64,000 nucleotides of DNA from Mayamaea pseudoterrestris. Its lineage: Eukaryota. Each line of letters begins with the position of its first letter. Position 1 is the stretch's first letter. Position numbers and translations under genes: made by a program. Location: positions 620,001 through 684,000 of the forward strand of contig BROI01000012.1 in the NCBI GenBank assembly GCA_027923505.1, read 5' to 3'. Under the pieces are notes generated by a model. That model saw nothing but the letters and a program-made list of their open reading frames with translations. It had not been told where the DNA came from and made no database searches. Shown in pieces: positions 32,440-53,092 of the stretch.

Positions 32440-34368
32440 ATGAATCATTGTAGCGCGCAATCCGTCATCTCTGGATTACATGGCCGAGAGCGTCGACAAG
32501 AACGCAACATTTCCAAGGATGATGGTAAGCTGGCGAAACGGTTTGGCATGAAGGAGTCGGCAGGAGGGTCGGAAGGTCTCGTCAAATATACCCACAAGGG
32601 AAATGTCTTCGTAATGAATCCTAGCGAAAATAAAGAAGTAACTTGCTACGTGAGCAACGACTATGCGTCACCATTCTCGGGGACGAGACGCACCGAACCA
32701 CTGTTTGTTCCCATGAAGCAGTGCTCGGGGCACAAGGAAGCTTGGCGCATGCTAAAGGATTATTCGACTCATACCATCTTTCTAGTCGACATGTCGTCGC
32801 TCATGAGACAGGATGACTTGGATGGAGCAAGGTGTCGATCGGACGGCATGTTTTACTCACTCGCCACCGGTTTTGTGGAATCTGCCTTGGAGCACAAAAA
32901 TTGCAATCAAGTTGTTAGCGTTATTCTCATGCATGACTCAAAGACAACAATTTACATGCGAAAGAAGCCCATGACCGAGACTATTTATAATCAGATTATC
33001 AATTTGAGGGAGTGGAATACCTTTCGGCCCAATGGCGACTGTGATTACGTTGATGCCCTGCGAACGGCAAGACGAATCATGAGGAAGTCGCTGCCTGGCT
33101 GTCAATTCAATTTATGCATTATTGCAAATGACGTTGCAATGGCACCAATACAAAATGATATAACAAACGGCTCGGCTCATCTTGTTGAAGGAAATATGTT
33201 GAAAATGATTACGAAAGTCGCACGAGAATTTTCGCGACGACTCTTTATGAACTGCATTGGAATCGGCCATGAGTCCGATTCCTTTACTGTACTCAAACGT
33301 ATGATGGCGAAAGCAAGACAACTGGCTCTTAAGTGCAATTTTCATCGGTGCAATCTGGATGTTCATTCTCTGTCCGAGGCACTGTCAATTTTGGGGCGAG
33401 CCAGTGCGGATGGTGCGACTTCTGCTCCGACACTACACCGCCCCCACCTCCCTAGAACCATTGCTAAGGCATATACATGGAATGCAGCAACAAGTGACTA
33501 TGAATTGCTCATCGATCGCCGATGCCAATCCTGTTATGTACTTGTTGGAGACGAGTCGCTCACGGCTGACCTACAACACGGCTGGAAATGCGCGAGCTGC
33601 CAGGCTTGCTTCTTTTGTGTCGCCTGCATGAACCATTTTACGTGGCACCTGGGGTCTCCACAATGCATAAAAGCGGCATCAAAACATGAGGACATGGTTC
33701 AGGCAACGATTCCGTCATACTCAGTTTTGATACAATATGATGCGCCGATTCATTACGTCGCATTTTCCGGTCGACAGCTGCGTTTCATAGATCAGAATGC
33801 TCAAGTGATTGAATCATGCTTTACCAGTCGCGAACTTAGTGGAAGCAACTTCGATCAAGTTGGGGTTGTATTGATGAATGAAATCAAACGTCTAGGGCAA
33901 ACGCGAGCTGTAATTGCGGAGTTCGCCGGTCGCTTTAACGCAGAACTCGACAGGCGACAGCCGCATCATCATTACTTACGACTGCGAGTTGCTCTTCCAA
34001 TAATTATAGAGATTGAGGGCGGATGTTGTTATTTGGCGAGCGAGCAAGGACCATGCGACAAGGTGGTAAGCGATTCAGCTTACGTTGGCGACACGAGAGA
34101 ACTTCTTGACGCTTTCACCCACTACACATACGCAAGAAGCAACAATACTTATCTGGCTGTGGCAACAACCGACATTCCAGCGTTACAAGCGAATCAGCTA
34201 CTTTTGAAGAATGTCATACTCTACGCAAAGTCTAAATTATCAATTTCGGACGATATCATGACTTTTAATGCGTATGAAAGTTATTATCGACAGTCGCATG
34301 ATTGCAACAAAGTGTGTCATAGCCTTGGACTGTCAGTAAGTGGTCGACTCAGAAACCTTTATATATGA
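32440..34368 (+). CDS. vWA domain + Cys/His zinc-finger + degenerate alpha-kinase (eEF2K/MHCK-like) protein
   Basis: HTIFLVDMSSLMRQDD (vWA/MIDAS-like), CQSC...CASC..C..C..C...H...C, and LDAFTHYTYARS...SHDCNKVCHSLGL (alpha-kinase C-terminal Zn site). Confidence 0.75.
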   Translation: MNHCSAQSVISGLHGRERRQERNISKDDGKLAKRFGMKESAGGSEGLVKYTHKGNVFVMNPSENKEVTCYVSNDYASPFSGTRRTEPLFVPMKQCSGHKEAWRMLKDYSTHTIFLVDMSSLMRQDDLDGARCRSDGMFYSLATGFVESALEHKNCNQVVSVILMHDSKTTIYMRKKPMTETIYNQIINLREWNTFRPNGDCDYVDALRTARRIMRKSLPGCQFNLCIIANDVAMAPIQNDITNGSAHLVEGNMLKMITKVAREFSRRLFMNCIGIGHESDSFTVLKRMMAKARQLALKCNFHRCNLDVHSLSEALSILGRASADGATSAPTLHRPHLPRTIAKAYTWNAATSDYELLIDRRCQSCYVLVGDESLTADLQHGWKCASCQACFFCVACMNHFTWHLGSPQCIKAASKHEDMVQATIPSYSVLIQYDAPIHYVAFSGRQLRFIDQNAQVIESCFTSRELSGSNFDQVGVVLMNEIKRLGQTRAVIAEFAGRFNAELDRRQPHHHYLRLRVALPIIIEIEGGCCYLASEQGPCDKVVSDSAYVGDTRELLDAFTHYTYARSNNTYLAVATTDIPALQANQLLLKNVILYAKSKLSISDDIMTFNAYESYYRQSHDCNKVCHSLGLSVSGRLRNLYI

Positions 34369-34467
34369 CACGCAACAATCAACACAAGAATAATTGGCAG
34401 GCGCCAGAAGCCACTGGCGATCGGGTGTTAATCATACGCACACCTTGTTCGCGCATTTGCGTGAGAA

Positions 34468-36059
34468 TCATACGCACACTTTGTTCGCGCATTTGCGTGA
34501 GCCGCAACAGTCATTAGAAACGGTGCATCGGCGCAGCCTTTTGCGGCATCGGGAGCACCGGCTAGATCCACTGGCGCGTTTGATACATTTGAGCGCGTTA
34601 CAGCAGTCTTGAGTAGCGGAGCATTTGCTTGCTACTGGAGAGCAAGTTTTTCCGCCGACAGCAAGGATTGTTAAAGGTACATCCTTGCCGCAATATGAGC
34701 GTCCGAAGCCGATACTGATCACCATCGCATCAACATCTAAATCAGCGTTATACACGCGCCGACAGACTGTGACGATCATTTGGCGGCCAGACCCTTGGTA
34801 GTTGTTGTCAACAAAGCGTCCACCAACGCCTAAACCTGCTACGCTATTGCTGTACAATGAGCCGTCTTGGGTTATGGTAACAAGATCAGCTTTTGCCTGA
34901 GTGTGCAAGTTGAAACCTTTCGCGCGATTGTATTGAATGGCATAGTTCCCCACCGTGATCAAGACAGGACTGTTGGTTGCCTTGCGATAGTCTGCGAAGG
35001 AAGTGAGTTTAACCTTCACACCACCTTCGAATGGATTAACGTCTATCTTGCGATTTTTGTACCAGCCGAGCTGATTATTTTTGATGCCATTGAAGCACAT
35101 CAGAGGCCAATCGGTCGACGTATAAGAAAATCCCTGCGTGAGAGCCTAGTGTGAGAGCTTGCTATCGGTTGTTGCTTACTATGAATGTAACCACGTACCA
35201 TGAACCCTGTAGCGTCACCGTATGATTGAGAACCAAGTCCTGAATGCAGCAGACCAAGTGAATGGCCCATTTCGTGCATGAGTGCAGACAGCGATGTGCA
35301 CCAAGTATCCTTCATATTCAAACGCCACCCGTTCACTACCGCCACTGAGGTCCATTCCAAATTGTCAGGAGGCTGGCAAAAGATGACCTTGTCCGCAAGG
35401 TCGGTCATCGAATCTGCATTTAGAATATCCAAGACCTTTGCTTCGGATGCAGCTGCGAGGTCCGCGGGCGACGTATAATATGAACGCTGACGGGGGAGCG
35501 TGATTTCCATCGCTCGCGCTTCGCGAAACCGGAGCTTGCCAAAGGAGCATGCTTTGTACTGTGACGCCATGCTAGTTCCTGTCCCAAGAATGTGTGTTCT
35601 GAGGTCATTTAAACTCGCGGAAGGTGCGTATCCATCGCTGCTCGATACTCGGACAATCATCACCGACAACGTTCCGGTCGTCGTCAAGGTGGTAGCGACC
35701 GCATTTGATGGTTGATACTCGGCAATTGTAAATGTGGAATTGGTAGCCAAATCAAGCTCATACTCTCCATAAAGTGACGCATGTTCGGCGTGAACATACA
35801 AGGTGCCATTCAGTAATCGACGTTCAGCGGACGCATCCATCATGTCTTGAGGCAGTTCGATTGGCACAATGGCGTCGCTCTCGGTGCCATCATCCATAAC
35901 GGGGATGCAGAGCGTTTCCATCGATGCTGCGGCTGTGACGACGCGACAGAGAAGCTTTTTGTTGGTTGCATGCGAGGAAGCCGTATCTTTGCTTGTCTCA
36001 TGGCCGCTCACCACCAGAAGAAGCATTGCACCCAGGATCAAAAGTGGAAATCGCGTCAT
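34468..36059 (-). CDS. Secreted M11 (gametolysin-like) metzincin with C-terminal knottin-like Cys repeats; exons 36059-35199 and 35133-34468
   Basis: Signal peptide, SQYKACSFGKL, HEMGHSLGLLHSG...YGDATGFM|GFS...P.MCFNG.K..QLGWY, and two C..C...CC...C repeats. Confidence 0.88.
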
Positions 36060-36328
36060 TGTACTCGTAGTACCTTTATTGAAACATAATGGGCGGATGA
36101 GCCTATTTGTGCAGCGTGGATATAGCCCATGGCTTTCGCCGCGATGGCTTCACGCTGATTATCCACGCTGCGAGCTGGTCTCGTTATAACGCAGCGGAAG
36201 GTGCGCTGTATGTACGAGTTCAAGCAACCAAAGTCGAATAATACGTACGGAAGAGGTGCTTTTGCATGCCACAAAGATAGCTAAAAATGTCAATAATCAT
36301 ATCAGTGGCATACTATTATTGAAACGAT

Positions 36329-37473
36329 CTATTCGACAATGCTCCACAATACTTCCTCGCCAGCTCGCAGAGGCGTCACCGTCTGCTCGTTTCCAAACTG
36401 CATTGACTTTGGAACAGTCCAGCTTTTCTTCTCTAGCACTAGTGTGTCTGTCGACCGCGAAAGGCCATAATGATCCGCTCCAAACGAGCTGCAAAAGTCT
36501 TCCAGCTTGTCCAAGGCACCGAATCGATCAAAGGCTTCTGCATACAATTCCACAGCGGCATGAGCCGAAAATACGCCGGCGCATCCACAGGCCGACTCTT
36601 TACGCGTCGTGGCGTGCGGCGCCGAGTCGGTGCCAAGAAAGAATTTCGGACTGCCTACAGTGGCAGCCTCGAGGAGCGCCTGTCGATGGACTTCGGCTTT
36701 TAGAATGGGAAGGCAGTACAAGTGAGGACGAATGCCACCCACAAGCATGTCTGCGTGTCACAAGATGTATGAGTAAATGAAATGTCAAATGTGCGTGCTC
36801 TTGCCTTATAAATGATGCACTTACGATTTCTGTTGTATAGCAGGTGGTGGCATGTAATGCTCGCCTTGACAGTGTCAGGAGCGCTCTTGACATACTCAAC
36901 CGCCTCCTTTGTGGAAATATGCTCCATTGTAATCTTGAGTGTTGGAAAATCATTGACGAGTGGCTTCATGACTCGCTCAATGAAGATTGGTTCACGCTCG
37001 AATATGTCAGCGTCCGTGACTTCGGAGTGAATGCAAAGCATCATGTTTTGACGATTGAGCTCCTTGAGCGCGTCATAGCAGTTGCGAATATCCGTCACGC
37101 CAAAGTCACTGTTAGTCGTTGCGCCTGCTGGGTAGTACTTGCAGCCGACAATGCCTGCTTGAGCTGCTTTGGTGATTTCGTCAGCCGTTGTTTTATCCGT
37201 TAAGTATAGCGTCATGAGCGGCTCCATGGTGCTGCCGTCTGGCAACGAGTCAGTAATATGCTGCTTGTATTCAAGTGCCTGCTTTGTAGTAGTCACTGGA
37301 GGAACCAAGTTGGGCATGATCAAGCATCGTCCAAACCGCTTGCATGCGTGTTGGAGAATCAACTTGGTTTGCAATCCGTCGCGAGCATGGTGGTGAAAGT
37401 CATCCGGCAGGCGAATCGTGACGCGAGTTCCGGGAGCAGAGACACCAACTGGAGTCTCATTGTGTAAAGACAT
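36329..37473 (-). CDS. pyrC: Dihydroorotase (homodimeric E. coli PyrC type); exons 37473-36825 and 36750-36329
   Basis: [79 protein letters not shown]. Confidence 0.95.
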
Positions 37474-37728
37474 GTCAATATTGTAGATGTAGAATTAAAC
37501 GGTAGACTTGGGACATGGAGAGATTAGTCGACCAAGCAATGCATTGTGTCGGCAGGTAGGCAAAGATCTTCATGGTTGTCACGCGAAGGAAGCATTCAGT
37601 ACCGGTGCGATGATTGATGATTGATGCAGCCGCTGCAACAATCGTGAAGATCTTTGTCGTCACTGCGATGCTGCTCTCTCTATATCTTTGCAACGAGCGT
37701 AGCATTCACTTAATGACGAAATGCAACA

Positions 37729-39171
37729 ATGGATGGATTTGACTGGATGAACGATTGTAGCGACGGCGATGACCAAGGCAATGACGCTGACGCCGACGAC
37801 AAGTCACAATCGTCGTCCTCGTCCTCTTCCAGCATTACCTCTTCCTCGCATCCTCGGCCGTCCCTTTCACAATGCACTCGCGAGGACGATTCTGATATAT
37901 TCTTGCTAGCTCCAGCAGTCATTCCCGAACAACCGGAAATTAGTTCAGACGAAGTCCTTCGACGAATTGAAGACTTTGCTGCAAGCTTCATTGATCAACT
38001 CGACAATTCGCACTCATTCCCAATGCTGCAAAGCTACAATGATCCGGCTGCGACAACTGACAACGACGACGACATGCCTGCCATGAAACAAATCAGCAAA
38101 CGCTTCACTGCCCTCCATCAGTCACGATCCTATACGAGCATTTGGTTAGTCCTTTCCTTTTGTCACTCCTTGCTGCGCTCCAATCGCACCGCCACCAACC
38201 GCGAAGTGTACTACCACTATGTCACTCACTTTCGCAAGCAGCGCGAGTGCGATGCGGCTATTTTGGATGTTGCCTTGTTGCTGCAGGTTCCACGCATGGC
38301 GCTTGGTCTAAAGGCGTCTCCCAAGGGATGGTACTGTGGTTGCGTGTTGCTTATCAGTGACAATGTTCATGACAGCAAAGACGGTAGCGACAAAGAAAAC
38401 GTTGGTGAAAGAAAAGAAGAAAACATTCTTTGCGACGGCCGCAAGCTATCCAGTCCCAATGGCTTTCCCGTTACATCCGAGTGGCTCATGGGTAAGCATC
38501 GGCGCAACTTTACCATTCGCTCCACGAACGAGTGCATTTGCATTCTCGTCATTGAAAAGGAGGGTGTCTACAATCGTCTAGCGGAGGATCGCTTCTTTGA
38601 CAATTATCCATGCGTCTTGGTCTGTGGCAAGGGCTTTCCCGACTTGGCGACGCGAGCGTGCGTCTACACGCTCTCCAATGAACTGGACTTGCCAGTATGG
38701 GGTGTCGCGGATTGTGATCCATATGGAATACTGGTCTTACATTGCTACATGTATGGCAACAATGCGCAGCTGGGCGTTGATGGAGGGTCTCGGTATGGAG
38801 TTCCCATTCAGTGGGTTGGATTACGACCGTCGCAAGTTCCGCACATTGCCACGGACAAGAACGAGCTTCCAAGTCAATGTCTCATGGAATTGACGGACAA
38901 GGATCGCAAGGTAGTGGAGTCTATATTGGCACGAGAGGATCATCGTTGGACAAACTTTGGCGACAACGATCGACGCGTTGCTGAAATGGAAACCATGCTG
39001 GAAGATGGGTATAAGGTGGAGCTCGAGGCATTCAACTGGATTGGCATGGACTACTTTTCCGAGTGGCTCGGCAAGATTTTCGAGCACTATTTACAAGTAA
39101 ATAAGCCAAATTCTGATGCAGGAGACTCTGAAATTGATGTCGAACAACTTGGATGGATGGAGATTATCTAA
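37729..39171 (+). CDS. SPO11: SPO11 / topoisomerase VI subunit A family (probably the meiotic SPO11-2 type)
   Basis: REVYY (catalytic Tyr), ASPKG, IEKEGVY.RL, GKGFPDLATR, ADCDPYG (TOPRIM DxD), GLRPSQ, KVELEA. Confidence 0.92.
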   Translation: MDGFDWMNDCSDGDDQGNDADADDKSQSSSSSSSSITSSSHPRPSLSQCTREDDSDIFLLAPAVIPEQPEISSDEVLRRIEDFAASFIDQLDNSHSFPMLQSYNDPAATTDNDDDMPAMKQISKRFTALHQSRSYTSIWLVLSFCHSLLRSNRTATNREVYYHYVTHFRKQRECDAAILDVALLLQVPRMALGLKASPKGWYCGCVLLISDNVHDSKDGSDKENVGERKEENILCDGRKLSSPNGFPVTSEWLMGKHRRNFTIRSTNECICILVIEKEGVYNRLAEDRFFDNYPCVLVCGKGFPDLATRACVYTLSNELDLPVWGVADCDPYGILVLHCYMYGNNAQLGVDGGSRYGVPIQWVGLRPSQVPHIATDKNELPSQCLMELTDKDRKVVESILAREDHRWTNFGDNDRRVAEMETMLEDGYKVELEAFNWIGMDYFSEWLGKIFEHYLQVNKPNSDAGDSEIDVEQLGWMEII

Positions 39172-39266
39172 TGTTGCTCTTTGTTCTTGTTTGTATCGAC
39201 ATGTCATTCCTGCATAAACATAATGCACATATATTATGATTGAGCATTGTTTTACATTACTGCACT

Positions 39267-41568
39267 CTGTACCATTTAGTCAGCCGCAAGCCAACCTGCA
39301 AACTAATGGTACCACTTAGTCCACCTGCAAACATACTGTACCAATTAGTCAGTGTGCCACAAGCCAACCTGCAAACTAATGGTACCACTTAGTCTGCCCG
39401 CACACGTACTGTACCCATTAGTCAGCCGCAAGCCAACCTGCAAACTAATGGTACCACTAAGTCCGCCCTCAAACGTATTGTACCAATTAGTCAGCCACAA
39501 GCCAACCTGCAAACTAATGGTACCACTTAGTCCGCCCGCAAACGTACTGTACCAATGAATCAGCCGCAAGCCAACCTGCAAACTAGTGGTACCACTTAGT
39601 CCGCCCGCAAACGTACTGTACCCATTAGTCAGCCGCAAGCCAACCTGCAAACTAATGGTTCCACTTAGTCAACCCGCAAACGTACTGTACCAATTCGTCA
39701 GCCGCAAGCCAACCTGCAAACTAAGGGTACCACTTAGTCCGCCCGCAACTGTACTGTACCCAGTAGTCAGCCGCTAGCCAACCTGCAAACTAATGGTACC
39801 ACTTAGTCCGCCCGCAAACGCACTGTACCTATTAGTCAGCCGCAAGCCAATCTGCAAATTAATGGTACCACTTAGTCCGCCCGCAAACGTACTGACCCAT
39901 TAGTCAGCTGCAAGCCAACCTGCAAACTAATGGTACCACTTAGTCCGCCCGCAAACGTACTGTACCCATTAGTCAGCCGCAAGCTAACCGGCAAACTAAT
40001 GGTACCATTTAGTCCGCCCGCAACTGTACTGTACCCATTAGTCAGCCGCAAGCCAACCTGCAAACTAATGGTACCACTTAGTCCACCCGCAAACGTACTG
40101 TACCAATGAGTCAGCCACAAGCTAACCTGCAAACTAATGGTACCACTTAGTCCACCCGCAAACGTACTGTACCCATTAGTCAGCCACAAGCCAACCTGCA
40201 AACTAATGGTACCACTTAGTCCACCCGCAAACGTACTGTACCCATTAGTCAGCCGCAAGCCAATCTGCAAATTAATGGTACCACTTAGTCTGCCCGCAAA
40301 CGTACTGTACCCATTAGTCAGCCGCAAGCCAACCTGCAAACTAATGGTACCACTTAGTCCGCCCGCAAACGTACTGTACCAATGAGTCAGCAGCAAGCCA
40401 ACCTGCAAACTAATGGTACCACTTAGTCTGCCCGCAAATGTACTGTACCAATTAGTCAGCCGCAAGCCAACCTGCAAACTAATGGTACCACTTAGTCCGC
40501 CCGCGAACGTACTGTACCCATTAGTCAGCCGCAAGCCAACCTGCAAACTAATGGTACCACTTAGTCTGCCCGCAAATGTACTGTACCCAACCGACGCCAA
40601 CTAGCGTGCCATTAAGGTGCTGTCGACCCCATTAGTCAGCCGCAAGCCAACCTGCAAACTAATGGTACCACTTAGTCCGCCCGCAAACGTACTGTACCAA
40701 TGAGTCAGCAGCAAGCCAACCTGCAAACTAATGGTACCACTTAGTCTGCCCGCAAATGTACTGTACCAATTAGTCAGCCGCAAGCCAACCTGCAAACTAA
40801 TGGTACCACTGTACCAATTAGTCAGCCGCAAGCCAACCTGCAAACTAATGGTACCACTGTACCAATTAGTCAGCCGCAAGCCAACCTGCAAACTAATGGT
40901 ACCACTTAGTCCGCCCGCAAACGTACTGTACCCATTAGTCAGCCGCAAGCCAACCTGCAAACTAATGGTACCACTTAGTCCACCCGCAAACATACTGTAC
41001 CCAATAGTCAGCCACAAGCGAACCTGCAAACTAATGGTACCACTAAGTCTGCCCGCAAACGTACTGTACCAATTAGTCAGCCGCAAACTAATGGTACCAC
41101 TTAGTCCACCCGCAAACGTGCTGTACCCATTAGTCAGCCGCAAGCCAACCTGCAAACTAATGGTACCACTTAGTCCGCCCCCAAATGTACAGTCAGCCGC
41201 AAGCCAATGCTTGGTCTGCACGCAAACGTACTGTACACTTAGTCAGCCGCAAAAACTGCGCCAATTAGTCAGCCATGGCAACCTGCAAACTAATGGCACC
41301 ACTAATCCCACCTGTCATTAGTCAATGCAAGCCAGCCTGCAATAATGGTACCATGAATCCGCCCGCAACGTGCAAACTAATGGTACCACTGAGTCCCATC
41401 TTAAAACGTATTGTACCCATTAGTCAGCCGCAAGCCAACCTGCAAACTAATGGTACCACTTAGTCCGCCCGCAAACGTATTGTACCCATGAGTCAGCCGC
41501 AAGCCAACCTGCAAACTAATGGTACCACTTAGTCCACCCGCAAACATACTGTACCCATGAGTCAGCCG
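39267..41568. repeat. 69-bp satellite array, ~33 units
   Basis: Unit ttagtcagccgcaagccaacctgcaaactaatggtaccacttagtccgcccgcaaacgtactgtaccca. Confidence 0.97.
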
Positions 41569-41963
41569 TAACACCGTTGACGATTTCGCAGTCAACGTCT
41601 TACCTCCAAAAAGCTCCGATACAGGGTCCTTGGCCACGGTCTGTACAGCTCTTGATGGAGATGGCTCATCGAATAGTCTTGCGCTCGCCACTACACGAAT
41701 ACGACTGCACTCTTGTCGCAAACTAGTAGTTCTATATTGTGAGCTTATCGCTACATCGCTACATCGACCACTCGGAAGATCATCCAATCAATCCGTTTCT
41801 TTCAATCACATTACATCAGTCGTAATCGCTCATTCCATTCATACAACGCATCCACACGACGGTTGCGCACTTTCTTCATTCACATGTCACATACGACAGC
41901 TGCGGACTCGACACAAGCTAATTAGGGTTCGGGCTCTTGACTTCGCCGCTCTGCGACTTGTCA
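41569..41963 (-). repeat. 3' LTR (starts TGACAAG after the PPT; terminal ~8 nt missing)
   Basis: PPT at 41964-41971. Matches 47871-48191 and abuts the satellite without the AATTAACA end. Confidence 0.85.
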
Positions 41964-44900
41964 CTCCCCTCGGGTACGCTGCTCGTCGTAGCCGCATTCT
42001 TGTCCTTCACAATCGCATACGATGTATCGCCGCGCCAAAACAATACTGGCTTGAGCAATGGCATCGCATCACAGTACGGCAGGTACTTCGTCAGTACGTC
42101 CGCAATGTTCTCCTTTCCGTCAATCTTTACAAACTTGATAATCCCCGCAGCAACTGCCCAACGAACACGATGGTAGGCCAACGCATTGTGTCGCTTGGAC
42201 AATGTCGAACTCGGGATTGTAGATTGCGTAATCACTGCTTGGTTGTCTCCGTACATCCAGGCAGACTTCTCCAATGGTACGCCCATAGCCATGAGCGACG
42301 CACGTAGAGAAATGCTGATATCCGTTCCACTCTTTGCTACGCCGAATTCCGATCCGAAGGTCGCGGTCTCGACTGTAGCCTGGAGTTTGCAATGCCAGTC
42401 GACAGGCGTCTGGTTGACAAATGACAAAACTCCTTCCAATGACTTGCCTGTCACCATGCAATGCATGAGACACGCATCCTCGAAAGTTGATGTTCGTACG
42501 GTCACACCCTTTGGCGGTGGGTAGACGTCCAACATCTCATCAACTCCGTCCTTCCCGTAAACGCTGCGCTCCCAATCTTGTTCCTCCATGGTGCCGAAGT
42601 GCTCCTCGTTGGCTGGCCACTTCGTACGGAAACGGATTGCTGCGTCCGGTAACTCTCGCAAATATCCACAGACTCGCTTCACCCGCTGCAGGTGTCCCTT
42701 GCGCGGCTCCACACGGAATCGCGACAGACTCACAACTGCTACGGCAATGTCAAATCGTCCCAAAGTAATCGCCCACTGAAGTGCTCCAACTAGAGACTGG
42801 TAAATCTTCTTCTCTTGGTCGTTCAGTAGCTCGCTTTGGTCAAGTTCTGGATGATCGTCTTTGTCGATTGGTGATGAGTACTTCTTCGGAGGACCTTCAA
42901 ACAAACGCTCGTACTGCGCCAAGAGTTTCGCAACGTAGGTCTTGGCCGACCAGTAAAGGGTTCCGTCAGGGTCTCGTCCAAAGTCACCGCCGAGATGATA
43001 CTCGGGATGTCCAACACCTTTAAGCTTAAACTTGTACTTCTCCTCTAGCATCTTGAAGAACGCTGCTGGATCGTCTGAAATATTCAACAGATCGTCGACC
43101 CATACACAGAGGTAGTCGTAGCTGTCGCCGGCGTCCTTGATCCACAGATCGGAATCGCAATAGGACGGCTTCCACCCTTCCGCAAGTAGGGCGTCGGCTA
43201 AGCGTTCGTGAAATCGTGCTCCGCTCGTTCGCAATCCGTACAAAGCCTTGACGATGACCAGGATGTGTCCTTCGCGCTCCCCGAACTCGGGGCCTCCAAC
43301 GAAGTATACCTTCTCCTTGGTGAACGCTTCGAGATAAGCATTCCCAATGTCACCGACCATGCACTTCTTGCCGTTCGCTTCTCCAATGACGAGAGCTAGA
43401 CGCATTGCCTTCAATGAGATAACACTGGAGTAGGCATCGTCGTTGTCTTTCGTCAGGTGGCCGCCTGCAACGAGACGTGCCTTGTATCGCAAATCGTGCT
43501 TGACATCGTACACAAAATGGACTCGGATCTTTTGGTAACCAGTTGGTGGTGCTGTGGTGGAACTCGGACCGAGATCTTGAAACGTCTCGTACTCGTCCAG
43601 GTTCGCAAGCTCCACGCCTTCCGCATCCGTCCACTTCGTGTGCCCTGCAGCTTCCTGCAAACGCCGCGCTTCCTTCCAATCTCGGGGTACTTGGACTCCA
43701 AACTTGTAGCGCGGTCCGTTCTTCTGCTGCTCCATTCGGGCGGTCGCCACCTTGCGCGCAACCTTCTTGGCGTTCCGGGCCCATCGATTCAACGATGCCC
43801 ATCCGTCCTTGTCGAGAAGATTATGCTTTTGCGCGTAGGCTGCCACTGATACTTTGTCGCTTTCGATCATCGCGTTGAGAGGCTCCCAAGTCTTGGATCC
43901 ATCGTCCCATTGTACAAGGACGTTCCACTTGGAGTGCTTCCAGTTCTTCGACTTGCTCGTCAGCGGACCCTGATGGTCTAGAATCTCCTTGAAGAACCAT
44001 TTACGCTCAGGATTCGCCATGTCTTGGTTCACTTCATTCTCGTAGAGATCGGAAACCTCGACATAGGACATGACTTCGTCCGCTTCGCCGTTACCAAGCT
44101 TCAGCATCATTTTAATGTTCTGATGGTTCTGGGCGTCGCGGTTGTTCAGCTTGCTCATGACGGTCGCTCGAACTTCTTGCCCGTCGTCCGTCTTCATGAG
44201 AAACGACTTGCCGATAAGTTCATCGGGTGCATACTTCGGGAGTTTGCGCCACGGATTGATGTTCTTCTTCTTCGGCTTGTCGTCGTCGTCATCGTCATCG
44301 GCAGGATTAGGATCTCCCTCCCCGTCGGTCATATCGTCGTCTTCCGGGTATTCCACCGTCTCAACCAAAGGGGTATCGTCTTCGTCAGGAATGAAAGAAT
44401 CATTGTCTCTGCTGTCGGCATCGGTAATCTTCTTGATCATTTCCGGCATAAGGATCTCGCCACCTAGACCAGGTACGGTATAGAGACGCGGCCCCCCTTC
44501 TTTCATGACTGGGGAAGCAGGTGCCGGTACGTGAAGGTTCAAAAATTTTGGGTCGTTTCTGGGTAAGCAAACCGATCGCGTCATGATCTCGTGGGTCTCG
44601 CAATCGCAGATGAAGTACGTCAGGTCGTCTCCGCACGTCGTGTTGGGACCAAGCCAGTACGCCGCGCGCTGGCGGGTACCCGGGGCCTCGACATCCTTGA
44701 CAAAGTAGTTGACAATTTCAAACCAACGAAAATGCAAATACTTCGACACGTCGGGGACTTGCCCAGTGATAAACTCGATGGGAGACTTGCCGTCCAAGGC
44801 AGGATGCGACAAATGACGGTACATCTCGGTCTGAAAGAGTAAAGCGCGTAGCCAGAAGCATGCCGGAGTGCCCGTTCGGTCCATAAGTCGTTCATGACTT

Positions 44901-45466
44901 TCCTTTACGTGCCCGATGATGCGCTCGGCTGGATTTTGATTCTGGTAGTACGGCTCCGATGTATGACGACGGCGAATCATGAACTCGCGCATTACTTCGT
45001 CAAACTCGGCACTCATCGCTTCTTTCGCATTATCCGAGAAGACTTCCAACGGAGCTCCAAACTCGCGGATGAAATCACGGAATCGTTTCGGTACGTCACC
45101 TTTCGTCCGCATGGGATACACGACAATGATCTGACTGCGACAACCATAGAATAGCTGCACGCATGTGCACCCTGCATGTCCGTCGATATGATCATCCATG
45201 GCTGGTTCGTCGAAGAACATGGTGTCATGGGCCACTCGATCATCTAGACGGTAGACGTTCAGGAATCGGCTCTTTCGATGCATTCGTGGGGGGTATCGGC
45301 GCTCGTGCATGTTGAACTGCGTGCTATGGCGCAAAGTATCCTTGATCGTCTGCGCCGGGTACCATGCAAAGTTCGGCAGCAATGCGTCGATATCAGGTTG
45401 GCAGGATAGACTTGTAGGGCTGATAGACGAGATCCGCATTGTACTTCTGTACGACGGCACAAACAT
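41918..45466 (-). CDS. pol: Copia pol: integrase, chromodomain-like module, reverse transcriptase, RNase H
   Basis: VAHDTMF/FSDNAKE/QNPAER (DDE), KARLVAGG, DIGNAYL, KALYGLRTSG, WVDDLL, ETATFGSEF, GDNQAV, NIADVLTK. Confidence 0.95.
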   Translation of the reverse strand: MFVPSYRSTMRISSISPTSLSCQPDIDALLPNFAWYPAQTIKDTLRHSTQFNMHERRYPPRMHRKSRFLNVYRLDDRVAHDTMFFDEPAMDDHIDGHAGCTCVQLFYGCRSQIIVVYPMRTKGDVPKRFRDFIREFGAPLEVFSDNAKEAMSAEFDEVMREFMIRRRHTSEPYYQNQNPAERIIGHVKESHERLMDRTGTPACFWLRALLFQTEMYRHLSHPALDGKSPIEFITGQVPDVSKYLHFRWFEIVNYFVKDVEAPGTRQRAAYWLGPNTTCGDDLTYFICDCETHEIMTRSVCLPRNDPKFLNLHVPAPASPVMKEGGPRLYTVPGLGGEILMPEMIKKITDADSRDNDSFIPDEDDTPLVETVEYPEDDDMTDGEGDPNPADDDDDDDKPKKKNINPWRKLPKYAPDELIGKSFLMKTDDGQEVRATVMSKLNNRDAQNHQNIKMMLKLGNGEADEVMSYVEVSDLYENEVNQDMANPERKWFFKEILDHQGPLTSKSKNWKHSKWNVLVQWDDGSKTWEPLNAMIESDKVSVAAYAQKHNLLDKDGWASLNRWARNAKKVARKVATARMEQQKNGPRYKFGVQVPRDWKEARRLQEAAGHTKWTDAEGVELANLDEYETFQDLGPSSTTAPPTGYQKIRVHFVYDVKHDLRYKARLVAGGHLTKDNDDAYSSVISLKAMRLALVIGEANGKKCMVGDIGNAYLEAFTKEKVYFVGGPEFGEREGHILVIVKALYGLRTSGARFHERLADALLAEGWKPSYCDSDLWIKDAGDSYDYLCVWVDDLLNISDDPAAFFKMLEEKYKFKLKGVGHPEYHLGGDFGRDPDGTLYWSAKTYVAKLLAQYERLFEGPPKKYSSPIDKDDHPELDQSELLNDQEKKIYQSLVGALQWAITLGRFDIAVAVVSLSRFRVEPRKGHLQRVKRVCGYLRELPDAAIRFRTKWPANEEHFGTMEEQDWERSVYGKDGVDEMLDVYPPPKGVTVRTSTFEDACLMHCMVTGKSLEGVLSFVNQTPVDWHCKLQATVETATFGSEFGVAKSGTDISISLRASLMAMGVPLEKSAWMYGDNQAVITQSTIPSSTLSKRHNALAYHRVRWAVAAGIIKFVKIDGKENIADVLTKYLPYCDAMPLLKPVLFWRGDTSYAIVKDKNAATTSSVPEGSDKSQSGEVKSPNPN

Positions 45467-47524
45467 TCAGCTCCTTCTCGGTGTAAACAGGTTGATTGTC
45501 GTGTCCGAGATTCGTATAAGTCACGTTGCTCTGACGATGGGTGCGATTCCGCGTACGCGAACGTGTCACGCGCGTGAAGCCCTCTTCGTTGTCTTCGTCG
45601 CGCGACAACAAGTCCGGTACGTCGTCATCGTCATCCGAAGAGTCATAGTCGTCGTCCTCAGTCGGCTCGACGTCAAACTCATTCGGATCCCAAGGCCCAT
45701 CGAAGGTCATCATGACCCGAGGTAAGGTGTGAAGCTCATGCGCCGACACTGGAAACATTGGCAAGGTCGCCATGCCACTTTCCATTCCGAGCATAAACTT
45801 GTATCCGTCTGGCGTTTCGATTCGTAACTTGCCACCAAAGTTGTAATGCTTGTCGTTGACATGAAGTCCGAAGGCTTCCATCTGCATACTCGAATGAATC
45901 GTCTTGCCGGTTCCAGAATATGCGTAATTATGGAACTCGCCGATGACCCAACCCTTGGTGCTCTTAAGCTTGGCGACTGCTGTGATGGTAGACAAGTCCG
46001 GAAGTTTGAGACCACCGACTCCAGTGACTTCAATCTTGTGGAACTTGTCCTCGGTAAGGATGCGGCCGTCCGCTCCCCATACTCCGCCACTTGCGCCGCG
46101 ATCGACAGTCGACGCTGAATGCTTATCCAAGTCAATGCTCGCAACTTTGTACTTGCGACTCTGAGCAATATTTGCTCCCCGAGTCGTAGTCGTGGGCTGG
46201 TCTGGACCTAAGAAACTTCGCATCGCTGAGCCACGGCTGGTGTTGTTCACACGCTCGGTCGCCGCACTCGCCGTCGTTGCCGCTGATGAAGTGGCTGCGA
46301 CGTTTGCGTTGCGTGTTGTACTCGTCGTCTGCGTGGTGCCTGCCTGTGTTGCTGATGTCGAACCACCTGCAGCACTGGCCGCTCGACTCGTACCACGGCG
46401 TTCAAACACTTCATGTTGCTGATCGCGGGTAAGGAGTCGCCACGTGTTTGGTGGAATCGTCGCATTCACGTCGCTGGGAACTTCGATCGTTTTCGTGTCG
46501 GCATAGCTGCGAACATACGAACGAGTATCTCCCCAACCGCGGCGGCCGCCGCCGCTCCGTGCTCAAGTCGCCGCGACCACTGCCCCCTGGTTGGATTGCT
46601 GATTGTTGCTGCTACTTGGCGTAGACTGGGAATTGTTCGCGCTTGCCTTCTTCGTCTTCTCCTTCTCTTTCTTGGTCTGCTCAGATTGGTTTGCCTGACG
46701 CTTCTCCGTCTCCTTGATGCCACGACGATTGTCAGATTGACGTGCGACGTCGTTCAGGAGGTTCCAAAACTGGGTGTACGCCATTGGGTTGCCGGTCTTG
46801 GACTCTTCGATCAGCGCCATGTTCACCGCCGCTGCCATATCCGCGTGGCGGAAAACCGCGCTCCAAATCTGACGCTTCGTGCTTGCTGTAAGTGAGCTCG
46901 GTTTCCTCGGCGTAGTCATTGTAGTTCTCTTCCTTGCTGGACCACTGGATTGAGCCAATTGACGAGAGACTTGGCGTAACCGCGTCGAGGGTGAGAAATG
47001 TGCCATTTGTCTTCGGCCGAACGTAGATCCAACTTGCGCGCGCCATCCCATCGAGGAATGTCGCCTCCAACTCTGCAATGCACGCTTTCGAGGCATTCGC
47101 GCTGTCGATGTGCTTGCGGACAATGAGCTTGCTCTGCGGTTGTCTTGCAGGTATACTCGAGCGCCGCTAAAAGCTTCGAACACTGATACTGATACTGGCG
47201 AATTCGGGCTCGAGTGCAGCTGGTGCCCTGCGAACTCTCTCGTCCCAAAGTAGCCAAGTCGGCTTCGCCCATGCGGTTCTTGAAGGCCCACCAGTAGGAG
47301 CAGAACTTGCGACGGTTCTTGAGCTCCAGCATGGTCTTCAGATCCAGCTTGATGCGTGTCGCTTCGTGGGTGATTATGCGTTGCCTCGATAACGCTAAAG
47401 TCTCCGAAACTGCGGTTGCCCTGCGGTCGGTGACCCCGGTGCTACTGGGAGGTCTCGGCTCGTAATCTGGTCTTTCTCCAAGTCTTGCCATTGCGCAGTC
47501 GTCCGATGTTGCTCGTGAATCCAA
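45393..47524 (-). pseudogene. Gag and aspartic protease region of the retrotransposon, split by several frameshifts
   Basis: Overlapping ORF pieces 47524-46916, 47070-46732, 47291-46563 and 46469-45393. STVDRGASGG protease motif, IHSSMQMEAFG and WDP motifs. Confidence 0.75.
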
Positions 47525-47862
47525 CGCTCAGCTAATGCTGAATCCGGCTTGTTCGTATCGTCGACCAATGGTACTGGTTCTTAATGTTTCGTCACGTCTT
47601 GTTCCGACAGCTCGCCGCCGCCTCCGCAGTCATGAGTTCCCTCCTTGCTCGAAACATACTGCGGTAGGGTCGTTTGGATCCCCAAGCTGCGGACGCTGCG
47701 GAGAGCCCACGGAATCTCGAAGACTTTACCGACGGCAACCCGCTTGTAGGTCGTTACATCAATCGTCGTCATGGTGAGGTTGATCAGAGGAGATCGGACT
47801 CGCTGCAGACGAGAATGTGTCACGATAGCTCCTCTGCCTCGTTCGCTCTCAAAGCACTGAAA

Positions 47863-48191
47863 TGTTAATTTAACACCGTTGACGATTTCGCACAGTCAAC
47901 GTCTTACCTCCAAAAGCTCCGATACAGGGTCCTTGGCCACGGTCTGTGTACAGCTCTTTGATGGAGATGGCTTCGTCGAATAGTACTTGCGCTCGCCACT
48001 ACACAAATACGACTGCACTCTTGTCGCAAACTAGTAGTTCTATATTGTGACCGCCAGCTGCATCGCTACACTTCGACCACGGAAGATCATCCGATCAATC
48101 CGTTTCTTTCAATCACATTACATCAGTCGTAATCGGTCGTTCCATTCATACACGCATCCACGACGGTTGTGCGCACTCTTCATTCACATGT
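47863..48191 (-). repeat. 5' LTR (ends ...TTAAATTAACA; first ~75 nt missing)
   Basis: Matches the 3' LTR. Followed on the minus strand by tttcagtgctttgagagc at the expected primer-binding-site position. Confidence 0.85.
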
Positions 48192-48212
48192 AGCATACAT
48201 TTCTTTTCAGGC

Positions 48213-50508
48213 TAGCTGATGGAGTGCACAATCGTTTCGCCCCGGACATTTTGAGGACCAAAGGTTTCGGTTGATGCGCAAATCTCCTCGTGTTTGATCT
48301 TGGAGCCTTGAGGGTCTCGTCTCGACAGGTGCTGGATTCACCGCTCTGATTGGCGTTCTAGTTTTATATATCGTTTCTGATGCGGCTACTTTGAGCTGCT
48401 TAACCTTTCCAATGAGCTCATCTAGCGATAGACAGTCGCAAGTCTTGGGGGCCAATTCCTCGCCATGCTCACATGGGCAGACGAATCAGACGATGATCGG
48501 AGGAGATTTCCGAGCTGGCGGGGTAAGCCAGCACTGTCGATCCGTCAACAATTTGGAGGCGACCCACTCTAACGCGGTGGATACCAGTCGCCGACGTAGC
48601 GCAATCAAATGAAGCTTGACTCAAAAATCATTTCAATGGGCATTTGCCCTTTCGTTGCCAGGAGTAACTTGGTGCGATTGCAGCAAACCAATAGTGGGAA
48701 GAAGTAAACCAGCTTGTTTCGACTCGCCGCCTGTGTTCACTAATGGCCGTACCCTCGACAAAAGATGTTTCTTTCGATTTTGAATGAAAAGAGTTGAAAT
48801 GTCCTTGACTTCTTGCCACTTAGCATGCCATTTTGTGCCATGGACCGGATAAATATCCTCGAAGCGAGAACGAGCCGCATTGGTGGCGTTAGGAAGCACC
48901 AAAAGAGAGATACAGGGTCACTGCAAGGCACCGCAAACTGTTGTTAGAACATGACAGTGGAATAAATTATATGTAAGCACAGCTTGACTACACGTCCAGT
49001 ATCACCACGTCGTATTCGTATGTTGGTGACTGCGGAACTACCACCATTCGCGTACTCGATGGACACTCGAGTGTCGAAAAGCAAGATAGAACATTGCTGC
49101 CAACTAGGTCGCTGCAGTTGCTCCAATCCATTAAGTGAGTGCGGGCTAGGCTAACCAAAGTTTCGTCTCTCCTAATGACCACCACTGACTGAACACTTTC
49201 GTGTCCGAAGCACTTCTCGCAGGGCAGCTCCAGTTCCTCCTCAACCAATGACAACCATGCGAGGATGTTCATGCATTAACATGGCCGGATGAACTAGCAC
49301 TTCAATATACTGCGCCTCGGTTAGCCGGACGACACCTGGACAACACCATTCATCAGCAAAATTCGGTCAGGTTTGTAAAGATCCGCGTGCTGCGACTCGT
49401 ACGAGCCATTCGTCGCGTCCAGTGACCGCTCATGGTCGGCACGCCGTCTCGGATACCCAATCACATCGTACACTTCCAGCAAGTCGCCGTGGGAGGTTGT
49501 CCTTGACTATTCACTCGTTCCTTGAGCTCATATTCCATCGACCCAAGCACATATCAGCTCGAACAATGCTTGCTCGGCATCAGTTTCGTCATTGTCGTTG
49601 GAAAAGCCTCGTCGTTTGAGCGCCCACTTGCTCTGCGGCAGCGTCGTAGCGCTGGTTGGATCCGCCGATGGCACTCAAAAAACTCTTGGAGTGCGTGGAC
49701 GATCTCATGTATGGCATCCTCCTCGCTGAAATGTCATTAGGTCCAAGAGTATTACACCTCATCCGGCCACGTGAGAAGGTAATGTGGCTCTTGAGCGCAC
49801 GCCTACAAAAGTGACGCCGGTTGGAAAGAGCGCGTGGCAGTGAACCGAGAGTAATTGCAGATTGCCCTCGTTGGGAACGTATCAATCATGGCTTGGGGGA
49901 CAGTCGACCCGCATGATTGAGAAACAGCGAGTCAACGTGTTGAATATCAAATGAGAATGTGCTGGCCTGATGAGTATGAATAATGAAAGTCTGTCGGTGA
50001 TGGTGGTGGCTTTGATTCGAAAGATGAAGCACTGGTATCAATCGCAGAAAAATCCTGCAGAGCCAACACGGATGTCGACCGTCGCTGGAAACGATGTATC
50101 AAAGTTTCTTGCCGAGTAGACTGTAGATGGTAAGGACACATTCATCAAGTACGTCACCGGAGGAAGATCCATGTGACCATTTGCAATTGACTGCTCGTCT
50201 CCTATGATTTCGACCGTTAAAAGATTTCGTGAAGCATCCATTTGCAACCGACACGCTTGTCCGAAACCAAAGGAAAGCATCGACGCAACTAACAAAGGAA
50301 GGACCATGAAGGGATCCCGGAAGGGGCGAACCGAAAGGAAGACGGTAACATATCATCAACATGAAAGTCATGGTGAGACACAACCGACTCCTTCACTTTG
50401 ATGTTGCTACCGAAAGACTCATTGTACCTCGTCGTCGGCTCTTACAGCCTCCGCATTCATTGTGGTTTGGTTCGTTGCAAGGGTCCCGAGCGCGACGTCC
50501 TTGCACAT
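48213..50508 (-). pseudogene. Second AdoMetDC/SpdS fusion copy with many 1-2 bp indels (pseudogene or low-quality consensus)
   Basis: Aligns to 29503-31787 but is broken into more than 10 short ORF pieces. Confidence 0.8.
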
Positions 50509-50684
50509 GACAAGATTTATATCGGCGCCTTCCGGATGCTATTTGTCGACATGGGTCGATTGGGATGAGGCGAGGCAATGGAACGCTTCCAGGAAATGTT
50601 ATGTGACCACGCGCGCTTATTTTCCAACGCGCAAGCCGAGTCGTTCGGCGAGCACGAAATTTCGAGAACCAATACGATTAATGC

Positions 50685-51049
50685 TGACGTAGTTTTCACT
50701 GGCACTCGTTTCATATTATTGCCTTGTGACGTAGTTTTCACTGGCACTTGTTTCGCATTATTGCCTTTTGACGCAATTGACATTGGCACTCGTTTCGTAA
50801 TATTGCCTCGTGACGTAATTGACACTGGCACTTGTTTCATACTATTGTCTCATGACGTAATTGACACTGGCACTCGCTTCGTGTTATTGTCTCATGACGT
50901 AGTTTCACTGTCTTTCGTTTCATATTATTGCCTTATGACGTAATTGCCACTAGCACTGGTTTCGCATTATAGCCTTATGGCGTAATTGACACTGGCACTT
51001 GTTTTTTACTATTGCCTCGTGACGTAATTGACACTGGCACTTGTTTCAT
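50685..51049. repeat. 42-bp minisatellite (copy B)
   Basis: Duplicate of 31961-32325. Confidence 0.92.
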
Positions 51050-51163
51050 GTTTAACCCCTGTCTGAATGTCGCGGCCTGTTGCCGATCTGGGCAGGCATC
51101 CGGGCGGCATACCTCGTTCATCATCCATTGTTGCTTCCACCATGAACTACCTCGAAACAAACG

Positions 51164-53092
51164 ATGAATCATTGTAGCGCGCAATCCGTCATCTCTGGAT
51201 TACATGGCCGAGAGCGTCGACAAGAACGCAACATTTCCAAGGATGATGGTAAGCTGGCGAAACGGTTTGGCATGAAGGAGTCGGCAGGAGGGTCGGAAGG
51301 TCTCGTCAAATATACCCACAAGGGAAATGTCTTCGTAATGAATCCTAGCGAAAATAAAGAAGTAACTTGCTACGTGAGCAACGACTATGCGTCACCATTC
51401 TCGGGGACGAGACGCACCGAACCACTGTCTGTTCCCATGAAGCAGTGCTCGGGGCACAAGGAAGCTTGGCGCATGCTAAAGGATTATTCGACTCATACCA
51501 TCTTTCTAGTCGACATGTCGTCGCTCATGAGACAGGATGACTTGGATGGAGCAAGGTGTCGATCGGACGGCATGTTTTACTCACTCGCCACCGGTTTTGT
51601 GGAATCTGCCTTGGAGCACAAAAATTGCAATCAAGTCGTTAGCGTTATTCTCATGCATGACTCAAAGACAACAATTTACATGCGAAAGAAGCCCATGACC
51701 GAGACTATTTATAATCAGATTATCAATTTGAGGGAGTGGAATACCTTTCGGCCCAATGGCGACTGTGATTACGTTGATGCCCTGCGAACGGCAAGACGAA
51801 TCATGAGGAAGTCGCTGCCTGGCTGTCAATTCAATTTATGCATTATTGCAAATGACGTTGCAATGGCACCAATACAAAATGATATAACAAACGGCTCGGC
51901 TCATCTTGTTGAAGGAAATATGTTGAAAATGATTACGAAAGTCGCACGAGAATTTTCGCGACGACTCTTTATGAACTGCATTGGAATCGGCCATGAGTCC
52001 GATTCCTTTACTGTACTCAAACGTATGATGGCGAAAGCAAGACAACTGGCTCTTAAGTGCAATTTTCATCGGTGCAATCTGGATGTTCATTCTCTGTCCG
52101 AGGCACTGTCAATTTTGGGGCGAGCCAGTGCGGATGGTGCGACTTCTGCTCCGACACTACACCGCCCCCACCTCCCTAGAACCATTGCTAAGGCATATAC
52201 ATGGAATGCAGCAACAAGTGACTATGAATTGCTCATCGATCGCCGATGCCAATCCTGTTATGTACTTGTTGGAGACGAGTCGCTCACGGCTGACCTACAA
52301 CACGGCTGGAAATGCGCGAGCTGCCAGGCTTGCTTCTTTTGTGTCGCCTGCATGAATTATTTTACGTGGCACCTGGGGTCTCCACAATGCATAAAAGCGG
52401 CATCAAAACATGAGGACATGGTTCAGGCAACGATTCCGTCATACTCAGTTTTGATACAATATGATGCGCCGATTCATTACGTCGCATTTTCCGGTCGACA
52501 GCTGCGTTTCATAGATCAGAATGCTCAAGTGATTGAATCATGCTTTACCAGTCGCGAACTTAGTGGAAGCAACTTCGATCAAGTTGGGGTTGTATTGATG
52601 AATGAAATCAAACGTCTAGGGCAAACGCGAGCTGTAATTGCGGAGTTCGCCGGTCGCTTTAACGCAGAACTCGACAGGCGACAGCCGCATCATCATTACT
52701 TACGACTGCGAGTTGCTCTTCCAATAATTATAGAGATTGAGGGCGGATGTTGTTATTTGGCGAGCGAGCAAGGACCATGCGACAAGGTGGTAAGCGATTC
52801 AGCTTACGTTGGCGACACGAGAGAACTTCTTGACGCTTTCACCCACTACACATACGCAAGAAGCAACAATACTTATCTGGCTGTGGCAACAACCGACATT
52901 CCAGCGTTACAAGCGAATCAGCTACTTTTGAAGAATGTCATACTCTACGCAAAGTCTAAATTATCAATTTCGGACGATATCATGACTTTTAATGCGTATG
53001 AAAGTTATTATCGACAGTCGCATGATTGCAACAAAGTGTGTCATAGCCTTGGACTGTCAGTAAGTGGTCGACTCAGAAACCTTTATATATGA
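51164..53092 (+). CDS. vWA + Zn-finger + degenerate alpha-kinase protein (copy B)
   Basis: 642 aa. I can see two differences from copy A (PLFVP/PLSVP and NHF/NYF). Confidence 0.75.
   Translation: MNHCSAQSVISGLHGRERRQERNISKDDGKLAKRFGMKESAGGSEGLVKYTHKGNVFVMNPSENKEVTCYVSNDYASPFSGTRRTEPLSVPMKQCSGHKEAWRMLKDYSTHTIFLVDMSSLMRQDDLDGARCRSDGMFYSLATGFVESALEHKNCNQVVSVILMHDSKTTIYMRKKPMTETIYNQIINLREWNTFRPNGDCDYVDALRTARRIMRKSLPGCQFNLCIIANDVAMAPIQNDITNGSAHLVEGNMLKMITKVAREFSRRLFMNCIGIGHESDSFTVLKRMMAKARQLALKCNFHRCNLDVHSLSEALSILGRASADGATSAPTLHRPHLPRTIAKAYTWNAATSDYELLIDRRCQSCYVLVGDESLTADLQHGWKCASCQACFFCVACMNYFTWHLGSPQCIKAASKHEDMVQATIPSYSVLIQYDAPIHYVAFSGRQLRFIDQNAQVIESCFTSRELSGSNFDQVGVVLMNEIKRLGQTRAVIAEFAGRFNAELDRRQPHHHYLRLRVALPIIIEIEGGCCYLASEQGPCDKVVSDSAYVGDTRELLDAFTHYTYARSNNTYLAVATTDIPALQANQLLLKNVILYAKSKLSISDDIMTFNAYESYYRQSHDCNKVCHSLGLSVSGRLRNLYI

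Follow-up and report, generated by a model that had tools for sequence, protein, structure and literature searches.

The window analysed here, a stretch of 64,000 nucleotides from Mayamaea pseudoterrestris (assembly GCA_027923505.1, contig BROI01000012.1, positions 620,001 to 684,000 of the forward strand), carries at 41569-48191, on the minus strand, a Ty1/copia retrotransposon whose integrase ends in a segment predicted to adopt a divergent chromo fold, and whose 3' end abuts a tandem satellite. Copies of this element (family A) and of related chromo-bearing families were followed through the genome, and it is the preference of their ends for a 169-bp satellite, together with a favoured phase of insertion within its monomer, that constitutes the new evidence presented here. 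The long open reading frame (ORF) of the window copy, P0001 (41918-45466, minus strand, 1182 codons), encodes the D,D,E motifs of an integrase, an acidic linker, the chromo segment, a reverse transcriptase (RT) and an RNase H, and the parts of the element are distributed as follows (LTR, long terminal repeat):

41569..41963, minus strand: complete 3' LTR of 395 bp, its ends recurring in the majority of 30 LTR loci examined side by side
41964..41972, minus strand: polypurine tract, a purine run directly preceding the 3' LTR here and in other families
42060..42490, minus strand, approximate bounds: RNase H region of pol, from motif positions in P0001, with no Pfam match
42911..43546, minus strand: reverse transcriptase, Pfam RVT_2, E 9.9e-21, P0001 residues 641-852
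43811..44008, minus strand: predicted divergent chromo-fold domain, three strands and a helix in an AlphaFold2 model with Foldseek and VIA-align matches
44018..44236, minus strand: predicted SH3/Tudor-like beta-barrel and helix (AlphaFold2), directly upstream of the chromo fold
44270..44420, minus strand, approximate bounds: acidic linker ending in a lysine run, from the translation
44915..45229, minus strand: integrase catalytic core with D,D,E motifs, from motif positions
45467..47530, minus strand: gag-protease region, split over several frames, from the ORF list
47863..47870, minus strand: primer-binding site of 8 nt, putatively of half-tRNA-Asn type, the same 8 nt following the 5' LTR in four families
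47871..48191, minus strand: 5' LTR truncated by ~76 bp on its outer side and meeting unique DNA at a short microhomology

Integration was scored genome-wide at intact 3' LTR ends. Family A was taken as a census, in which 35 candidate 3' ends less three (a tandem LTR, an internal duplication and a misclassed 5' LTR) left 32; in family E, 31 intact ends were scored from the 39 sites sampled out of 54 listed, and in family C, the 24 sites sampled out of 49 listed gave 23 intact ends, to which one biased pick inside a satellite-embedded E locus was added to make 24. As controls, the 40 top RVT_2 matches of chromo-less copia elements yielded 30 intact ends from 11 families, with six truncated ends (none in the 169-bp satellite), three singletons and one tandem LTR set aside. 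The 169-bp satellite is abundant, with 7,487 exact 18-mer matches genome-wide and several arrays on contig C1 alone, and makes up between 4.1% (exact 18-mers only) and about 6% of the genome. Within it lay 11 of the 32 family-A ends, 7/31 of family E and 9/24 of family C, compared with 0/30 control ends, and both family-B elements examined were also found within it. Once duplicate flanks had been removed, 25/83 chromo-bearing ends versus 0/30 controls fell in the satellite (Fisher p=2e-4), which is about six times chance at a genome share of 4.1-6.0% (binomial p<1e-11), and a subset selected by its listed coordinates, prior to any inspection of the flanks, gave 11/34. When any satellite was counted, for which 40 evenly spread 5-kb stretches gave a background of 10.6% (bootstrap 3.6-19.3%), family A exceeded the controls (17/32 versus 4/30, p=0.001), and at the opposite end of the element 8 of 25 family-A 5' ends, plus three of five further complete ends, adjoined satellite. 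We consider it likely that this represents a real satellite preference at the time of insertion. The initial annotation, starting from the 69-bp array beside the window element, had proposed integration guided to satellite DNA; the enrichment holds genome-wide mainly for the 169-bp satellite, whereas the 69-bp satellite accounts for a single one of the 32 family-A 3' ends.

Insertions into the 169-bp satellite are, in addition, phased with respect to its monomer. When ends that agree in family and orientation and lie no more than 2 bp apart are counted once, 39 ends reduce to 25 events, of which 12 fall at monomer positions 152-168, a stretch of 17 bp, in both orientations and from four families (A 6/10, E 4/6, B 1/2, C 1/7). 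The scan-corrected p is 7e-5 for an interval of 17 bp, 9e-4 for 25 bp and 3e-3 for 34 bp, and an interval defined on family A alone contains 6/15 events of the other families (p=0.002). The hot stretch is G+C-rich, with few AA/TT/TA steps, and holds two of the monomer's four common CpGs. No target consensus was detected in 76 flanks outside the 169-bp satellite (at most 0.09 bit per position), and the flank profile predicts 9-13% of events in the hot stretch versus the 48% seen. A period of 169 bp would suit one nucleosome per monomer, such that phased chromatin may be the simplest reading of this pattern. A literature search on phased insertion in satellite monomers returned no relevant paper.

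Other arrangements were noted among the same elements. The two ends of a single insertion lie on different contigs in two cases, each with a matching target-site duplication (C27:272754/C39:9384; C29:124111/C41:34292), which may reflect recombination between copies or assembly misjoins. Chromo-bearing families are often nested or placed side by side, with tandem or internally duplicated copies (L012, L021, L022, L031, L049, L112, L113). Other satellites, with periods of ~180 and 344-360, are found at or close to some ends of chromo-less copia elements (L051, L053, L056, L062, L063, L073), including two of two copies in one chromo-less family, and certain of these families may have satellite preferences of their own.

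The window element is very probably a young copy of a Ty1/copia retrotransposon of the CoDi-A (CoDi-I) type and a new member of that group, an assignment based on diagnostic features (domain order, putative chromodomain, no CCHC array) rather than on a tree with named CoDi sequences. The order protease, integrase, RT, RNase H (PR-IN-RT-RH) proposed by the initial annotation was confirmed, as the protease motif, the D,D,E residues (45229, 45040 and 44932), RVT_2 and the RNase H motifs occur in that sequence; the order PR-RT-RH-IN of Ty3/gypsy chromoviruses does not apply, since integrase precedes RT and the RT is RVT_2. The RNase H at 42060..42490 was assigned by position and by what we take to be copia motifs. 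Pfam rve gave no match to the integrase core of the window copy, and PF00665 is precomputed for 3/120 homologs among the matches listed. Family A numbers 71 LTRs of 395 bp in the 30.6-Mb genome, generates 5-bp target-site duplications and encodes, in intact copies, a single ORF of 1955-1963 codons; indels of the window copy relative to an intact copy cluster at 44.0-48.2 kb. The element-sense LTR ends of family A, TG...TA, are non-canonical, and those of family E are different again. A CCHC array in gag was found in 0/11 chromo-family ORFs, five near full-length family-A ORFs included, and in 8/15 control ORFs, while an HHCC zinc finger, sought by a simple pattern (45230-45466 in the window), was seen in 0/11 and 7/15, respectively.

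In the RT tree, the six chromo-bearing families of this genome and eight outside homologs form one clade (SH-aLRT 99, midpoint root), which excludes 14 further copia RTs from the same genome. A profile of the domain matched 20/20 chromo-family loci and 0/15 control elements, all 110 outside RT homologs with at least 130 upstream residues carry the domain, and 1,134 representatives were retrieved at E<=1e-3; among the Atlas clusters of the domain Bacillariophyta is the commonest phylum, the phylum being known for two members. For one host gene, the best-ranked clusters belong to Chlorophyta and Bacillariophyta, and a diatom host is probable. In published work, CoDi clade A is described as having integrases with a putative C-terminal chromodomain, no CCHC array and a chromodomain probably captured independently of chromoviruses (Llorens 2009, PMC2774666), with the chromodomain and its independent capture restated under the name CoDi-I (Ustyantsev 2017, PMC5348765). 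CoDi-A and CoDi-I denote the same group, comprising CoDi2.4, 3.1, 4.1, 4.3, 4.4, 4.5 and 7.1 of Phaeodactylum and Thalassiosira (PMC2774666; PMC2806351; PMC5348765). The chromodomain in CoDi-A and its independent origin are hence already published and not new. It had been suggested for the window element that a chromodomain is not a textbook feature of copia, which is true as a general statement but had been reported for CoDi-A, and that a diatom copia lineage acquired it independently, which is plausible but was proposed by Llorens 2009 (PMC2774666).

By its predicted fold, the segment at 43811-44008 is a divergent chromodomain, though one that lies below sequence detection. The motif that first drew attention to it is present in frame between the integrase core and RT (WFFKEILDH at 43999-43973 and TWEPL at 43891-43877, minus strand), and the chromo-fold match expected from this motif was obtained with structure prediction but not with sequence searches. 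Pfam PF00385 has no match in the window protein, matched 2/84 relatives (E>=0.022) and gave seven matches in the genome, none at chromo-bearing elements; phmmer and profile sequence searches of the PDB returned no chromodomain among their matches, HHalign against three host chromodomains gave a probability of 0.5%, and an Atlas annotation of PF00385 for the domain at 0.79 is only a lead. The AlphaFold2 model built from 84 sequences reaches a pLDDT of 85, with 93-96 over the three strands and the following helices; the three-stranded sheet and C-terminal helix of HP1-type and type I chromodomains are present in this model, with a 10-residue insert between strands 1 and 2. Against 48,161 chains, each of the top 30 VIA-align matches (Z 4.6-7.5) is a chromodomain, a chromoshadow domain or a protein aligned by way of such a domain, among them the Rhino chromoshadow (rmsd 1.1 over 42) and dHP1 chromo (rmsd 1.9 over 50) domains, and the Foldseek matches, none better than E 0.12, belong to the same families. 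As a Z below 8 may reflect a common fold arrangement, the case for a chromodomain relies on the uniform match list together with the motif. The predicted barrel upstream (model residues 10-82) matches Tudor/SH3 barrels at Z 4.7-6.0 and is probably the integrase C-terminal domain, given what we take to be the architecture of retroviral integrases.

The aromatic cage of this domain is incomplete. Cage positions, numbered by what we take to be the HP1 scheme, were transferred by motif from HP1 (PDB 1kna), with an aligned host chromodomain as intermediate, and not on coordinates. The first is W490 (aromatic in 82% of 84 sequences) and the second W520 (99%), while the third is G523, aromatic in 1/84 and Gly in 69/84; the loop bearing the third position is three residues shorter than in HP1 and host chromodomains, and a further aromatic, inside the insert, is conserved in 90% of the 84. 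Type I chromodomains have three cage aromatics, and those of type II lack the first and usually the third (PMC6317226). The domain conforms neither to the HP1-type or type I pattern, as position 3 is non-aromatic in 83/84, nor to that of type II plant chromoviruses, as position 1 is aromatic in 82%. A Gly as third cage residue makes an ordinary methyl-lysine reading doubtful, and the module, lacking this aromatic, probably acts without a full HP1-type three-aromatic cage.

These data permit a model, to which, taken whole, we would give about an even chance, in which a CoDi-A copia element with a two-part integrase end is tethered to satellite chromatin. The integrase C-terminus would form a two-part module, consisting of the SH3/Tudor-like barrel and the divergent chromodomain of predicted fold, and the clade would integrate preferentially in satellite, chiefly the 169-bp satellite of nucleosome-repeat length, where a stretch of ~17 bp is favoured. 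Most likely the module would tether the integrase to satellite chromatin, upon which the integrase would cut at a site fixed by phased nucleosomes or by a bound protein. The window copy would be an insertion of this kind in which the target was a minor satellite and whose 5' end is rearranged or misassembled. That the C-terminal module mediates satellite targeting appears, on balance, somewhat probable. A more specific version, which we advance only tentatively, is that a tandem Tudor-like and chromo reader with a rebuilt pocket docks on phased satellite nucleosomes and integrates at a fixed point, such that copia would have reached satellite homing by a route of its own; the satellite would then perhaps be CENH3 or heterochromatic. 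Several observations weigh against this model. For chromo-bearing families, approximately 70% of the 3' ends are located elsewhere than in the 169-bp satellite, families E (9/31, p=0.21) and C (9/24, p=0.056) do not exceed the controls (4/30) when any satellite is counted, just one of the seven family-C events falls in the hot stretch, and the control count of 0/30 fits chance (p 0.16-0.28), so that no avoidance is seen in controls. The counts are of existing copies and not de novo insertions, and matching target-site duplications occur in only 8/15 two-ended family-A elements, the mismatch in 7/15 indicating that recombination or misassembly is common. The window copy itself has a different satellite, of 69 bp, as its target, and no structural match reaches Z 8 or a Foldseek E of 1e-3. 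Further, the cause of the preference is left open by the single RT clade into which all chromo-bearing families fall, which offers a single contrast, and any trait of the lineage could be that cause.

It may be that the preference is real but due to another trait of the lineage, be it the integrase core, the barrel by itself, the acidic linker or a host tether, with the chromo fold serving elsewhere, for example in DNA binding or protein contact. The domain and the clade are fully confounded, and the structural matches include the chromo folds of GEN1 and cpSRP43, neither of which is, to our knowledge, a methyl-lysine reader. The copia element Tal1 targets centromeric repeats through its integrase C-terminus, with no chromodomain named in the available part of that report (PMC11735389). 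However, the domain is retained in 110/110 homologs, at the place where chromovirus integrases bear their targeting domain, and another lineage trait as the cause is in our judgement improbable. Alternatively, the domain may bind H3K9me or H3K27me in the manner of HP1 or type I chromovirus chromodomains and lead the integrase to heterochromatin. This is consistent with the chromo fold, with the aromatics at cage positions 1 and 2, with the conserved insert aromatic, which might complete the cage, and with the H3K9me2/3 and H3K27me3 found on transposable elements (TEs) of Phaeodactylum (Veluchamy 2015, PMC4504042), as well as with the location of ends within other TEs (11/87 chromo-bearing versus 1/30 controls, from a library biased to chromo families). 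However, the third cage position is aromatic in a single sequence of the 84 and sits in a shortened loop, chromoshadow domains rank level with chromodomains at the head of the structural matches, and a mark alone would offer no explanation for a 17-bp phase; we therefore hold recognition of a canonical mark to be unlikely. The chromatin-mark-guided integration put forward in the initial annotation stays hypothetical, as the third cage aromatic is missing in 83/84 and the domain is inseparable from its lineage.

Targeting could also be absent altogether, in which case the accumulation in satellite would result from the purging of genic insertions, the amplification of passengers within arrays or haplotypes repeated in the assembly. 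The mismatched target-site duplications (7/15) and the occurrence of one insertion's ends on two contigs are compatible with this, and small contigs may be haplotigs. However, controls of similar within-family identity (91-100%) gave 0/30, the events occupy 22 different monomer positions in both orientations and in four families, and purging would not be expected to yield a phase, all of which renders such a passive origin quite improbable. Less credible still is recognition by the integrase of a DNA sequence that happens to be present in the satellite monomer, to which we attach very little weight. The window junction does resemble hot-spot junctions in a motif of 6-9 nt, and the flank profile shows a weak trend at one of the three widths used (width 12, p=0.04). 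However, no consensus emerged at the 76 other sites, the predicted 9-13% falls short of the 48% seen, and the 69-bp and 169-bp monomers are unrelated overall.

The window locus alone says little on targeting, and its surroundings comprise the following:

2..400, no strand: end of a 169-bp satellite array (TRF)
29482..41568, plus strand: first copy of a duplicate, ending at the element (BLASTN 95.1% over 12,265 columns)
39267..41568, no strand: 69-bp tandem array at the element's 3' end (TRF)
48192..60338, plus strand: second copy of the duplicate, 12.1 kb, in tandem, beginning at the cut 5' LTR

The element's 3' end adjoins the 69-bp satellite, as the initial annotation had reported, with the 3' LTR meeting the array at the exact family terminus; this is the only true satellite junction, the other end of the element not being in satellite. 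The 69-bp satellite is minor, with five arrays in the genome, two of them inside the window, and 77 exact 23-mer matches on contigs C3, C12 (two arrays), C13 and C18. The 69-bp satellite was compared with the 169-bp one for a shared ancestry, which was rejected (shuffle p=0.875). Of the three 69-bp arrays outside the window, two have a family-E copy at a distance of ~5 kb (C3:745368 and C18:151024). The surroundings are gene-dense, an SPO11/TOP6A-like gene adjoins the 69-bp array, and the array of the second copy (58002-60589) is without an element. The duplicate as a whole carries genes for AdoMetDC/spermidine synthase, a VWA-alpha-kinase, a peptidase M11 and the SPO11/TOP6A-like protein, and its copies differ by many indels at 48-51 kb and are nearly identical at 51-55 kb. 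A 42-bp tandem repeat recurs at three intergenic sites (14419-14619, 31961-32325 and 50685-51049).

With its 5' LTR truncated and fused to the first bases of the duplicate, the element has no target-site duplication. Two other family-A 5' LTRs (C15:247886 and C10:569297) end within the same 8 bp as the window copy does at 48191, all three breaks lying 70-76 bp inside U3, next to an internal copy of the first five bases of the LTR, and this coincidence suggests a recurrent biological break. In one-ended integration, as described in retroviral work, a faulty end is repaired by the host, and such an event, here producing a large duplication, has perhaps an equal chance of being right or wrong as an account of the 5' end; a literature search on aberrant one-ended integration found nothing. 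A misassembled joint, which we regard as possible but somewhat doubtful, would be in line with the richness in indels of 44-51 kb relative both to intact copies and to the duplicate. No listed contig of four sequencing runs spans 48191/48192, although these runs possibly derive from other strains or from the source itself and the gap is not proof. No RNA run was among the sequencing runs listed.

The primer-binding sites of four chromo-bearing families (L035, L037, L043 and L050) fit a tRNA-Asn-like anticodon arm, a sequence complementarity pointing to half-tRNA-Asn priming. The site is 14-15 nt long in sister families and 8 nt in family A, and in families C and F it pairs with a tRNA-Asn-like match (C23:41584) over 11-12 nt, plus 3 nt deduced from stem pairing. 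In the search for tRNA-Asn, one pattern gave no matches and a second gave three, one of them tRNA-like, versus 14 for a reversed control. Half-tRNA-primed copia elements are known that pair likewise with the anticodon arm, namely Osser, Bryco and Gymco-II with half tRNA-Met and Bianca with half tRNA-Ile (PMC6317226); they differ from the present families, where the tRNA would be tRNA-Asn and the site is cut to 8 nt in family A. A literature search on half-tRNA-Asn priming in diatoms found nothing.

Among known systems, the published CoDi-A/CoDi-I elements share with these families the copia order, a putative integrase C-terminal chromodomain, the missing CCHC array, a 5-bp target-site duplication and a proposed independent capture; unlike the present analysis, the CoDi-A publications offer, in their available parts, neither an analysis of the cage nor a structure, and describe no barrel upstream and no test of insertion sites. 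The insertions of CoDi elements in Phaeodactylum are described as mostly intergenic, with some in other TEs, and no satellite target is named in the available text (Maumus 2009, PMC2806351). In the literature searched, which covered few subscription papers, no test of the CoDi chromodomain's role or of CoDi targeting was found. Ty3/gypsy chromoviruses (Neumann 2019, PMC6317226) and the oomycete Chronos elements (PMC5348765) likewise bear a chromodomain at the integrase end with a presumed targeting role, but chromoviruses differ in their gypsy domain order, and the cage here, which keeps the first and second aromatics and lacks the third, is of neither type I nor type II. The copia element Tal1 (ALE4) of Arabidopsis lyrata also targets tandem repeats of nucleosome length, with its satellite targeting set by the integrase C-terminal region (Tsukahara 2025, PMC11735389). 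Its targeting was, in contrast, shown experimentally and is tied to CENH3 chromatin. The CoDi-A chromodomain has been labelled putative since 2009, and its role in steering integration is now testable, as this genome provides a natural read-out in which several chromo-bearing families of young age can be set against chromo-less copia families as controls, with a satellite that accounts for ~5% of the sequence and contains a 17-bp hot spot. Should the module prove to cause the preference, copia elements would have arrived at satellite targeting a second time, by convergence, and with a cage pattern that differs from those of both plant types, and if a tandem reader does dock on phased satellite nucleosomes, phasing at base-pair scale would be readable from a single genome.

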